A stretch of 64,000 nucleotides of DNA from a virus. Location: positions 1-64,000 of the IMG/VR virus record IMGVR_UViG_3300043446_004488. The stretch is one strand, 5' to 3'. The position numbers and the translations under genes are program-made. This document shows, piece after piece, positions 16,446 to 46,686 of the stretch (within the stretch, counting starts at the first letter, position 1; each line of letters starts with the position of its first letter). The notes under the pieces are model-generated. The model made no database searches. It was not told the origin of the DNA and was given only the letters and a program-made list of their open reading frames with translations.

Positions 16446-17171
16446 ATGATGGCAATCAGCACGCAAACTGAAGCACTTATTGAGTTATATAATCAAAAAA
16501 TTACCTTAGATACTCAACAGATAAATCAAGTCAATTATGTTCAGGCAGGATATGTAATTCAAACTGGTGTAGGAGATACTGAAAGATTTAAAGTTTGGGG
16601 AACTAATGAGATTATAGAAAATTATAATTATTCTATTTCAAAATTAGACAATCAAATTATTGCTTTAAATACTGAAATTCAAGACTTGCAGAATGATATT
16701 TTAAATGTAAAACAAACTGCAAATAGTAATGGATGTCCTGGTGCTATTTGGCAAATTGGTTTTACAACAACCACTGAGTATGAAGATACTTTAAATTATG
16801 TTGGATATGGATTTACTGCACCAAATCCATTTTCTTCAATTTCTGGAATACTCACCACATCAAATGCTGGAATTGGAACATACAACTACACATCACAATC
16901 TTCCATTGGACAATATTTTGAACCAATAACTGGTGGAGGATGTACAAGTTATGTAAGTCAAATTAATGACCTTGAAACTCAAGTATCTTCTTTACAAGGA
17001 GAAAGAGATAACTTAATTATTAAAGTTAATACTCTTAAGGCAAGTAGAGTTTCAGCTGAATTACAAAATTATGCATACAATCAGTCAAAAAACCAACTTA
17101 ATGAATCAATTGCAACTAATACTGCAATTCTAACTTTCCTTCAAGATCCTGCAAATGCAGGATTTTTATGA
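16446..17171 (+). CDS. Hypothetical coiled-coil protein, probably structural
   Basis: 241-aa ORF behind a late-promoter motif; two coiled-coil stretches. Confidence 0.7.
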   Translation: MMAISTQTEALIELYNQKITLDTQQINQVNYVQAGYVIQTGVGDTERFKVWGTNEIIENYNYSISKLDNQIIALNTEIQDLQNDILNVKQTANSNGCPGAIWQIGFTTTTEYEDTLNYVGYGFTAPNPFSSISGILTTSNAGIGTYNYTSQSSIGQYFEPITGGGCTSYVSQINDLETQVSSLQGERDNLIIKVNTLKASRVSAELQNYAYNQSKNQLNESIATNTAILTFLQDPANAGFL

Positions 17172-17219
17172 AAAACCCTACAGGTCATTTTTTACCTGGA
17201 AATTTTCGAGGGGGTTTTT
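17171..17219. terminator. Probable bidirectional terminator hairpin
   Basis: AAAAACCC...CAGGT...ACCTG...GGGTTTTT between convergent transcripts. Confidence 0.5.
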
Positions 17220-17242
17220 GGAATTAAAAGTCAATTTTGATA

Positions 17243-17327
17243 TAGGAGTAGGGAGGGTCGAACTCCCACGGGATTAACTCCCAACGGATTTTAAGTCCGG
17301 TGCGTCTACCTATTCCGCCATACTCCC
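17243..17327 (-). tRNA. trnL: tRNA-Leu(UAA)
   Basis: GGGAGTA/TACTCCT acceptor stem, D-arm GGCGGAATAGGTAGACGC, anticodon loop CT-TAA-AA, long variable arm, GTTCGA T-loop; CCA not encoded. Confidence 0.95.
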
Positions 17328-17330
17328 AGA

Positions 17331-17395
17331 TGAGGACTTACCCAGCCTCAGGTTTCCCTTCATAGGCACGGTGCCTCAGCACTTCCTTCACACCC
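17331..17395 (-). ncRNA. Putative structured leader RNA with a k-turn, upstream of the tRNA
   Basis: UGAGG/CCUCA outer stem enclosing GCC-UAU-GA-AGG-GAAA-CCU-GA-GGC. Confidence 0.45.
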
Positions 17396-17399
17396 AATT

Positions 17400-17428
17400 A
17401 TTTTAGAAGAAGAAGCAACCTTTGTCAA
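17400..17428 (-). promoter_or_regulatory. Sigma70-type promoter for leader RNA and tRNA-Leu
   Basis: TTGACA-17nt-TAAAAT. Confidence 0.75.
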
Positions 17429-17595
17429 CCATCATAGACCAGTTGACCACGAAGTTCTGCAAGTTTTGCCTGTGCAAAGCACTCCACACAAGTCCAATAG
17501 ACCTCACCACTGACCATATTGGAATCAGCAAAATGTGCAGCAATATCTTCCTGAAGTCCTTTCAGTTCTTCCAGTTGGTCACGATCAATGTGCAT
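17425..17595 (-). CDS. Small hypothetical protein (56 aa)
   Basis: Not in track: MHIDRDQLEELKGLQEDIAAHFADSNMVSGEVYWTCVECFAQAKLAELRGQLVYDG; has its own sigma70-like promoter. Confidence 0.7.
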   Translation of the reverse strand: MHIDRDQLEELKGLQEDIAAHFADSNMVSGEVYWTCVECFAQAKLAELRGQLVYDG

Positions 17596-34008: not shown

Positions 34009-34250
34009 TAGATTTTCTTTACTCGTGAACCAGGGGCTTTACTTGCTTTTTCAAGAACATCATTCCATCCAGGTTTTTTGCTGATTAGTTTATCACGCCA
34101 ATCACCAACTTCCCCTGGAGTTGCACATCCTTCAGACCAATCCCTTTTCCATTCAGGATTGTCTTTATACCACTGAGTGATATCATGAACACTCATTTCA
34201 ATCACTTTCTTTTCGCCAGTTTCTACATGAACAATAGGATAAATTGCCAT
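34008..34250 (-). CDS. Conserved cyanophage hypothetical protein
   Basis: 80 aa, translationally coupled to phoH. Confidence 0.75.
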   Translation of the reverse strand: MAIYPIVHVETGEKKVIEMSVHDITQWYKDNPEWKRDWSEGCATPGEVGDWRDKLISKKPGWNDVLEKASKAPGSRVKKI

Positions 34251-35395: not shown

Positions 35396-35423
35396 AGGTC
35401 TGCTCCTTTACTTAAGTGTAATG

Positions 35424-35480
35424 GTGCGTTCCTTCGGATTTCCTACTTCCGTTTGCTATTTGCAGATAGCAAATGAACGT
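35424..35480 (-). ncRNA. Glutamine riboswitch (glnA motif)
   Basis: CGUUCA-UUUGCUAU(loop)AUAGCAAA-CGGAAGUAGG...CCGAAGGAACGC matches the glnA three-way-junction/E-loop pattern. Confidence 0.85.
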
Positions 35481-35503
35481 GTTTTATGTATACAAGTAAT
35501 TTT

Positions 35504-46554: not shown

Positions 46555-46655
46555 GTTCTGAGGGACGAACTTTACGGTATTATTTCCACACTACCCTCTA
46601 GTGTGGATATGAGAGACGTGTTTTACCCTCCCATAGGTCTCGGTTAACGGGAGCA
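46555..46655 (-). ncRNA. PhotoRC-II-like RNA motif in the psbA 5' UTR
   Basis: ACCGAGACCUAUGGGAG...CGUCUCUCAUAUCCACACUAG..UAGUGUGGA; CUCCC/GGGAG and GAGAC/GUCUC pairings; boundaries approximate. Confidence 0.65.
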
Positions 46656-46660
46656 CAATT

Positions 46661-46686
46661 GTTAAGAAGTTGTAACAGTTCTTAAC
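46661..46686. promoter_or_regulatory. Palindromic operator GTTAAGAA-N10-TTCTTAAC containing an HLR1-like direct repeat
   Basis: Minus strand reads GTTAAGAA-CT-GTTACAAC-TT-CTTAAC. Confidence 0.6.

Follow-up and report, generated by a model that had tools for sequence, protein, structure and literature searches.

The question raised by this locus is what kind of RNA lies between a promoter and the transfer RNA (tRNA) gene behind it. The locus belongs to a window of 64,000 nt of the IMG/VR record IMGVR_UViG_3300043446_004488 (positions 1 to 64,000), which is the whole stretch of DNA analysed here and comes from a freshwater cyanophage. The tRNA-Leu gene occupies 17243-17327 of the minus strand, and the leader is accordingly read from 17328-17395 of that strand. 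The first-pass annotation of this DNA had described the leader as an RNA with a canonical kink turn (k-turn). In this study, comparison with relatives indicated that the leader is a conserved, so far undescribed two-part RNA composed of a 15-base head and a k-turn hairpin. The head, which comprises the first 15 transcribed bases, was absent from the earlier account. The features of the locus are as follows.

17400-17428, minus strand: sigma-70-type promoter, with the -35 hexamer TTGACA at 17428-17423, a 17-nt spacer and the -10 hexamer TAAAAT at 17405-17400.
17393-17379, minus strand: 5' head, the 15-mer GTGTGAAGGAAGTGC, starting 6 nt past the -10 hexamer, at the expected transcript start.
17331-17378, minus strand: k-turn hairpin module, defined by the alignment of 40 distinct copies (A3), pair counts and RNAalifold.
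17345-17367, minus strand: k-turn core of this module, with the C stem, 3-nt bulge, tandem G.A/A.G pairs, NC stem and GAAA loop.
17328-17330, minus strand: linker TCT, 3 nt between the outer stem (P1) and the tRNA 5' end, read from the sequence.
17243-17327, minus strand: tRNA-Leu, anticodon UAA, 85 nt, found by ARAGORN and Rfam (tRNA, 54.2 bits), with a long variable arm and CCA not encoded.
17171-17242, minus strand: conserved trailer (TCAAAATTGACTTTTAATTCC...), with a weak terminator-like hairpin and a T-run at its end (17198-17171).

The k-turn GCC-UAU-GA-AGG-GAAA-CCU-GA-GGC, nested in ACC/GGU and UGAGG/CCUCA stems, was present on the minus strand as the first-pass annotation had drawn it, with its core at 17367-17345. 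In the outer stem P1 (TGAGG/CCTCA), 17378-17374 pairs with 17335-17331. The single pair C17373-G17337 flanks an unpaired AA at 17339-17338, T 17336 is bulged, the ACC/GGT stem joins 17372-17370 to 17342-17340, and a 2x2 loop GT/TG places 17369-17368 opposite 17344-17343. Within the core, the C stem pairs GCC (17367-17365) with GGC (17347-17345) and is followed by the 3-nt bulge TAT (17364-17362), the tandem G.A/A.G pairs formed by GA 17361-17360 with GA 17349-17348, the NC stem of AGG (17359-17357) with CCT (17352-17350), in which the 3b.3n pair is A17359-T17350, and the loop GAAA (17356-17353). The single window sequence was not above chance. A loose k-turn-hairpin pattern had 3 distinct matches in the 64-kb window versus 3.35 +/- 1.5 in composition-matched random sequence. 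The leader had a minimum-energy fold with z = -0.14 against shuffles, and it folded no better than shuffles either alone or with the tRNA. Nearest-neighbour energy models are blind to k-turns; the test must therefore be comparative, and the reality of the structure rests on comparison.

In alignment A3, pairs were counted on the proposed structure in 40 distinct modules and in 500 shuffles. The proportion of paired cells was 89.3% versus 80.0% in the shuffles, and the covariation score was 0.315 versus 0.154, a value reached by 0 of 500 shuffles, with slid registers giving at most 0.125. Both-sided changes were found at four P1 pairs, at pair 9-49 and at two NC pairs. Pair 9-49, the single pair beside the unpaired AA, was UA in 34 copies, CG in 6 and never unpaired, and the NC pairs covaried as GC 21/AU 19 and GC 17/AU 8. 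The C stem GCC/GGC was identical in 40 of 40 copies and, because it never varies, gives no covariation evidence either way. RNAalifold independently returned P1, the C stem and the NC stem. Moreover, GA/GA was kept in 39 of the 40 distinct copies (the variant L257 has AA on the bulged strand), and the bulge was always 3 nt long (TGT in 36, TAT in 3 and TGC in 1 in A3; TAA in L163). The 3b.3n pair in A3 was A-T in 33, T.T in 4, A.A in 2 and G.T in 1, and C.U in L163. The core was also kept in variants with long NC arms (L102/L242 and L163) or with a GUAA (L161), UUCG (L265) or six-base (L311) loop. Because the stems covary and GA/GA is kept across distinct copies, the module was judged real, and the k-turn hairpin is a genuine conserved structure. 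The k-turn consensus asserted in the first-pass annotation was thus upheld, with its signature conserved and its flanking stems covarying in the 40 copies.

Two observations on the module stand apart. Columns 11 and 44 of A3 (window 17371 and 17342) are perfectly linked, being C/G in 22 copies and T/T in 18, and the linkage holds in both backgrounds of pair 9-49; simple Watson-Crick pairing in the register as drawn does not account for it. In addition, the bulged k-turn strand of most copies (CTGTGAAG) closely resembles the head (CGTGTGAAG), the corresponding window positions being 17357-17366 and 17385-17393 on the minus strand; this likeness could reflect shared origin or coincidence. P1 with ACCA was also considered as a mimic of a tRNA minihelix and was rejected, since its A and C take part in pairs (columns 55-56) and the window reads TCT at this place.

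Relatives of the locus were found through the neighbouring 232-amino-acid (aa) protein (IMG/VR contigs with the same gene order), and alignment of a 56-aa open reading frame (ORF) yielded 160 viral and metagenomic loci. A tRNA with a UAA anticodon directly followed this ORF in 47 distinct downstream regions. The promoter was common to all 47, with its hexamers held in position and its spacer sequence differing, and the 15-mer head or a close variant began 6 bases past the -10 hexamer in every one. In the window, the promoter agrees with the consensus at 11 of 12 positions, as the earlier description of a near-consensus sigma70 promoter implied, and its -35 TTGACA overlaps the TGA stop of the 56-aa ORF (17425-17595). 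We infer that transcription starts at the head. A conserved promoter standing before both leader and tRNA supports the co-transcription of the two that had been claimed.

The k-turn hairpin followed the head in 18 of 48 distinct tRNA-Leu leaders (window counted), and where the module was present its sequence was retained almost base for base. In the remaining leaders, about 60% of the homologous set, plain or other hairpins replace it. The expectation that homologous leaders would share the GA/GA pairs therefore held for 39 of 40 modules, whose stems also covary, but not for the tRNA-Leu leaders with a plain hairpin. In L086, L092, L138 and L170 the outer stem and internal loop were kept and the inner hairpin was plain; other leader types carried a plain hairpin, often with a GAAA loop, or two hairpins after the head. 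The tRNA-Leu genes of GenBank cyanophages (Syn33, ACG-2014b, S-MbCM25 and ACG-2014e) lie in other contexts with unrelated upstream sequence, and blastn of the leader against GenBank phages gave two chance matches only, with no cultured phage carrying the module at that sensitivity.

The module was also found beyond tRNA-Leu. An IMG/VR pattern that fixed CGTGCCT and GGCTGNGTAANTCC only, and placed no constraint on the bulge, the two GAs, the NC stem or the loop, matched 103 stretches; 77 of the 80 fetched were the module, and GA/GA was intact in 75 of these 77. The hairpin of about 55 nt was present in more than 75 IMG/VR phage contigs, and the exact 23-nt core of the window had no match in IMG/VR (near-identical records perhaps lying outside the search). 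A tRNA lay 6-28 nt downstream in 61 of the 62 distinct copies with enough flank, and the module stood 6-10 nt (rarely 15 or 28) upstream of the tRNA, counted from the TCC of P1. Among distinct copies, the downstream tRNAs were Gly(UCC) in 35, Met(CAU) in 16 and Leu(UAA) in 10, so that co-transcription with tRNA-Leu applies at the window but is not a tie to leucine. Before tRNA-Met(CAU), the module is a bare spacer that follows the 3' end of tRNA-Ile(UAU) by 2-3 nt and ends 8 nt before tRNA-Met, with no promoter and no head. Before tRNA-Gly(UCC), it is preceded by another promoter type and a variant of the head. Whole records contained one module per phage versus 11-12 tRNAs. Model R1 of the module found no match in 141 WH7803-family picocyanobacterial genomes, with phage records as the positive control. 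Since the k-turn hairpin also stands between tRNAs with no head before it, and since its internal loops are far too conserved for a mere stem, it is regarded as an independent module.

With its 3-nt bulge beside the C stem, tandem G.A/A.G pairs and continuing NC helix, the module has by sequence the standard features of a k-turn. In three dimensions, a standard k-turn is tightly kinked, with an included angle of about 50 degrees and A-minor contacts. A Watson-Crick 3b.3n pair blocks k-turn folding in metal ions alone, and the U4 k-turns are of the non-self-folding, protein-requiring kind (McPhee, Huang and Lilley, PMC4382518). Since the 3b.3n pair of the module is Watson-Crick, by this rule its k-turn should need a protein or a tertiary contact in order to kink. 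The L7Ae family (PF01248) was not detected at E <= 1 in the record of the window or in 4 related phage records, one of them 100% complete; in the controls of this search, Bacillus, Thermotoga and archaea matched and Synechococcus elongatus did not. The internal loop (GGTAAG opposite CACC in the window) is loosely tetraloop-receptor-like, and a contact of the GAAA loop with this conserved loop may be conceived from the sequence. One copy with a UUCG loop and several long-armed copies argue that such docking, if it occurs, is not obligatory.

No described family accounted for the element. At gathering and permissive thresholds, Rfam 15 found nothing on the module or head in the window, at 8 other module loci or at 5 stand-alone head loci; its matches at those loci were tRNAs and chance only, in agreement with the first-pass annotation, which had not recognised the family. 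The module does not qualify as a box C/D guide RNA, its strands being 10-12 nt apart in a closed hairpin with no room for a guide, and Rfam matches to small nucleolar RNAs were weak and at chance level (14-19 bits versus thresholds of 42-50). It is likewise no T-box, with no Rfam T-box match at E <= 10 and with the hairpin followed only by a 3-nt linker and the tRNA. A full-text literature search returned nothing relevant on k-turns in cyanophages or on phage antisense RNAs directed at tRNAs. The module constitutes an RNA family not described before, built on a standard k-turn in a new setting.

In the alignments the head was the most conserved part of the leader, and it is the exact reverse complement of nucleotides ~24-38 of picocyanobacterial tRNA-Val(CAC), which cover the end of the D-stem, the 5' strand of the anticodon stem and the entire anticodon loop. 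When the reverse complement of the head was scanned in 185,579 species genomes and 80 exact matches were fetched, 38 of the 80 lay inside tRNA-Val(cac) genes, including those of Synechococcus WH7803, Cyanobium and lake Synechococcaceae. Among 52 distinct heads, contiguous complementarity to tRNA-Val(CAC) was at least 15 nt in 31 and at least 11 nt in 48, versus a maximum of 8 for shuffled tRNA, and it reached 15-17 nt. The least variable part of the head was GTGTGAA, the complement of the anticodon loop; three A-to-G changes in the head retain pairing as G.U, and insertion variants keep register via one-base bulges and lengthen the pairing. Cofolding of the leader with tRNA-Val(CAC) gave a free-energy difference (ddG) of -16.2 kcal/mol versus a mean of -1.2 for shuffled heads, in a calculation that ignores tertiary structure and modifications. 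The exact 20-nt arm was single-copy and occurred in 72 of 78 WH7803-family genomes of at least 2.0 Mb versus 7 of 63 smaller ones. GUG made up 7.9% of Val codons in the long ORFs of the window versus 50.9% in picocyanobacterial loci. The tRNA-Val(UAC) genes carried by related phages are a poor match to the head. No site complementary to the head was found in the window at up to 3 mismatches. A site at 34123-34137 that resembles the head is part of a coding region, has the head's own sense and was attributed to chance. A possible pairing of the head with the conserved loop of the host small RNA (sRNA) Yfr1 would require two bulges.

Furthermore, the head occurs without a tRNA. A scan of IMG/VR for the exact 15-mer gave at least 120 stretches, of which 80 were read. 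Fifty-six of the 80 had no tRNA, and most of those inspected consisted of the head, a GC-rich hairpin and a T-run, usually located immediately 3' of the major capsid gene's stop codon, with a TG-n-TATAAT motif in front. The other 24 had the order promoter, head, hairpin and tRNA (Gly-UCC, Leu-UAA or Leu-UAG), with the k-turn in 5 of the 24. One stand-alone unit matched 198 GenBank cyanophage records, in which it is unannotated; in Synechococcus phage SynMITS9220M01 (L581:425-487), for example, the TG-n-TATAAT motif lies over the major capsid stop codon and is followed by the 15-nt head and a called intrinsic terminator. The non-coding RNAs of T4-like cyanophages in a recent listing are CfrI, PhotoRC-II, wcaG, manA, glnA and abiF only (PMC9964418). 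The leader belongs to a very widespread cyanophage RNA family, with some 200 records in GenBank and metagenomic contigs numbering in the hundreds.

The reading that we favour, at a probability of roughly 0.45, is that of a trans-acting leader RNA whose head acts against host tRNA-Val(CAC) and whose k-turn is an interchangeable 3' domain. An early phage transcript would begin with a 5' leader made of the 15-nt single-stranded head, the k-turn module of about 48 nt and the 3-nt linker, followed by tRNA-Leu(UAA). Given the general role of RNase P, its cut at the 5' end of the tRNA would free a small RNA of about 66 nt. Such a release, proposed in the first-pass annotation, is plausible, and the stand-alone units of head and terminator hairpin in many cyanophages lend it indirect support. 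The head would be the working end: pairing would start between its first 7 nt and the anticodon loop of tRNA-Val(CAC), which is single-copy in the host, and would then extend to 15-17 bp. Such pairing may sequester or disable the reader of GUG, a codon about six times commoner in the GC-rich host than in the AT-rich phage, which presumably supplies its own tRNA-Val(UAC). The k-turn hairpin would take the place held by a terminator in the stand-alone RNAs and by a plain hairpin in other tRNA-linked ones, shielding the 3' end yet letting transcription run into the tRNA, and it would probably be bound by a protein or held by an internal tertiary contact. The module may also serve alone, as a spacer a few bases before other phage tRNAs. 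The layout of head and hairpin is that of a seed-type sRNA.

Several considerations weigh against this reading. We infer the release and accumulation of the leader, the pairing with tRNA in vivo, the effect on decoding and the protein binding from sequence. The small RNA would have to invade the anticodon stem of a mature tRNA, a molecule that has a tight fold, carries modifications and is abundant, and no precedent for such an invasion was found. The codon-usage contrast follows from GC content and would be expected for any G-ending codon. PF01248 was not found at E <= 1 in 5 picocyanobacterial genomes, which leaves no candidate k-turn-binding protein in phage or host. The module that stands without a head between tRNA-Ile and tRNA-Met must have a head-independent role, and a mere protective 3' hairpin would not explain the near-invariant sequence of the internal loop. 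In the version linked to gp23, moreover, the head could be just a part of the 3' untranslated region of an mRNA.

The module might instead be a cis-acting element of the tRNA precursor, in which the k-turn aids cleavage by RNase P (or RNase Z/E) or insulates the folding of an AT-rich tRNA and the excised piece is waste. Its short and near-fixed distance to the tRNA (6-10 nt from the TCC of P1, with a linker of about 3-6 nt), its use as a bare spacer 2-3 nt after tRNA-Ile and 8 nt before tRNA-Met, and its presence at one tRNA per genome are in line with this proposal. However, at least 10 other tRNAs of the same genomes manage without it, close relatives have a plain hairpin or nothing in its place (the Ile-Met spacer of G002 is 4 nt long), a processing signal does not need invariant GA pairs and internal-loop bases, and the head is left unexplained; we regard the proposal as doubtful. 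The head is addressed directly if it is a 5' stabiliser, since it lies at the very 5' end of the transcript and its purine-rich sequence (AAGGAAGTG) differs at a single base from a long Shine-Dalgarno sequence. In Gram-positive bacteria, 5' stabilisers of the Shine-Dalgarno type are known. The head would then bind 30S or block RNases that depend on the 5' end, the hairpin would add a further block, and the match to tRNA-Val would be a by-product. This is improbable, given that the complementarity to tRNA-Val(CAC) is perfect over 15-17 nt versus the shuffled maximum of 8, that the most invariant part, GTGTGAA, is the anticodon-loop complement and not the Shine-Dalgarno-like part, and that a tRNA precursor or a 45-nt terminator-ended RNA offers little to stabilise.

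A little less probable still is a feature at the DNA level, in which the head is a relic of a tRNA-Val gene, the module and trailer are the borders of a mobile tRNA cassette and the conservation comes from recent spread. The swapping of tRNA bodies between near-identical flanks (L153, and the alternation of class I and class II tRNAs at one locus), the near invariance of the module where present and the homing-nuclease-like insertions at the locus (L124) speak for mobility. Nevertheless, selection at the RNA level is indicated by stem covariation with retained pairing, by GA pairs that do not vary and by head changes that are compatible with G.U pairing. Two unrelated promoter types both have the head placed precisely at +1, and it is also found ahead of terminators; the phages are lytic T4-like viruses in which no integrase was seen. 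The first-pass annotation had further suggested a switch that controls tRNA maturation, the k-turn fold being in competition with an alternative hairpin, AGGCA-CCG-TGCCT. This hairpin can indeed form in the window and in a small subfamily, but it was possible in only 6 of 40 modules; the other 34 distinct modules, which have GGTT(T/C)CGTGCC, cannot form it. As the hairpin is not conserved, as no ligand-pocket-like conservation was seen and as no expression platform exists beyond a 3-nt linker and the tRNA, the switch was judged very improbable.

Further observations concern the surroundings of the leader. The tRNA-Leu(UAA) is the sole tRNA of the window by ARAGORN and Rfam. The record was marked as a T4-like cyanophage because a PhotoRC-II RNA (46572-46664, minus strand, 77.1 bits) and a glutamine riboswitch (35423-35481, minus strand, 52.6 bits) are present. 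In marine relatives without the tRNA (L114, L119, L122 and others), the trailer (TCAAAATTGACTTTTAATTCCAAAAA...) lies directly 3' of the 56-aa ORF, and on this ground the promoter-leader-tRNA unit looks like an insertion between two TTGAC-containing sequences. In L153 (Ga0129333_10119244), compared with 17243-17395 of the window, the ORF and leader are identical and the tRNA-Leu body differs at many positions; by sequence, tRNA bodies appear to have been swapped between conserved flanks. Many relatives (L074-L076, L081, L086, L108, L110 and others) have, in place of the class II tRNA-Leu of 85-88 nt, a UAA tRNA of 73-77 nt that has no long variable arm and lies about 90-170 nt after the 56-aa ORF. 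At this locus in the metagenome contig L171 (1482-1670; JACCDY010764073.1), the anticodon loop of a phage tRNA-Leu(UAA) is interrupted by a group I intron (RF00028, 64.7 bits), an arrangement known for trnL(UAA) from cyanobacteria and plastids. In L124:1401-1960, the promoter, head and hairpin are followed by an ORF of about 140 codons, and the tRNA lies about 450 nt further on; this ORF looks like an insertion between leader and tRNA. A small ORF that starts from the ATG at 17363 within the leader was rejected, as it is not conserved and relatives have GTG with a stop after 7 codons or no start. The promoters of the tRNA-Gly units (L236, L243, L259 and others) carry an operator-like 20-bp palindrome (GACATAATACTCATTATGTC) between -35 and -10. 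In addition, an abiF RNA motif (RF03085, 44.8 bits versus a threshold of 37) lies within a cyanophage tRNA array (L289:2203-2239, minus strand), and a wcaG RNA lies near another (L240:242-336, minus strand).

K-turns are textbook protein-binding and architectural elements, and we know of none in phage pre-tRNA leaders. A k-turn in a host lineage with no detected L7Ae-type binder points to a new partner or to a self-contained fold. If the pairing between head and tRNA-Val is functional, it would be a new viral way to reshape the decoding capacity of the host and would help to explain why phage tRNA genes travel with conserved non-tRNA sequences. A more far-reaching version, which we consider rather unlikely, holds that a cyanophage small RNA, made both from tRNA leaders and from stand-alone genes, pairs with the anticodon arm of the host's only tRNA-Val(CAC), disables it and, together with the phage's own U34 tRNAs, tilts translation away from the GC-rich messages of the host and towards the AT-rich ones of the phage, the k-turn of this lineage recruiting a non-L7Ae protein, perhaps a nuclease or a chaperone; it would provide the first antisense RNA against a mature tRNA and a new class of bacterial k-turn ribonucleoprotein. 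The stand-alone head RNA occurs in cultured Synechococcus phages and is therefore directly testable.

Among known systems, the U4 5' stem-loop and the box C/D RNAs, which bind 15.5K/Snu13 or L7Ae, are similar to the module in being short hairpins whose 3-bp C stem is GC-rich and closed by C-G and which combine a 3-nt bulge and tandem G.A/A.G pairs with a small loop on a short NC stem. On its non-bulged strand the module has CTGA, which is D-box-like, the bulged strand departs from RUGAUGA mainly at 3b, and the 3b.3n pair is likewise of the non-self-folding kind (Watson-Crick or U.U). In contrast, the module occurs in a bacteriophage whose hosts have no detected L7Ae-family protein, and it sits in a pre-tRNA leader or spacer, without a guide region, C'/D' boxes or a small nuclear RNA context. 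The core motif is also the same as in the self-folding k-turns of ribosomal RNA (Kt-7) and riboswitches (SAM-I and the base of T-box Stem I), and, as in riboswitches, kinking could fold the GAAA loop back towards the conserved internal loop. T-box leaders and the present leader both join a k-turn with a stretch complementary to a tRNA anticodon. However, the module has no specifier loop, antiterminator or Rfam match, and the tRNA complementarity extends over 15-17 nt instead of 3. Compared with self-folding k-turns, the module has no copy with G at 3n and a single variant with C at 3b, from which no folding in metal ions alone is expected (PMC4382518); its loop is UUCG in one copy, and the NC arm is long in two. 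The archaeal L7Ae autoregulatory element resembles the module in that a 5' leader holds a k-turn hairpin for which no folding is predicted without protein, but there L7Ae and a translational output are involved (PMC6298567), whereas here no such protein was found and the downstream gene is a tRNA.

With respect to biogenesis, the window leader recalls species 1 and 2 of phage T4 (rnaC and rnaD) and 3'ETS-leuZ, small RNAs other than tRNAs that share a transcript with tRNAs and are cut out of it by the tRNA-processing enzymes; in sequence and structure it is unlike them. A trans-acting role by base pairing is established for the tRNA-spacer-derived external transcribed spacer (ETS) RNA; to our knowledge, these RNAs contain no k-turn and have no antisense relation to a tRNA. 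Enterobacterial 5'-seed sRNAs have the same layout, in which a single-stranded seed at the 5' end is conserved and the hairpin at the 3' end varies, and the stand-alone cyanophage versions also end, as those do, in an intrinsic terminator. The differences are that the proposed target is the anticodon arm of a tRNA instead of an mRNA, and that the 3' end of the window RNA would be made by RNase P instead of by termination.

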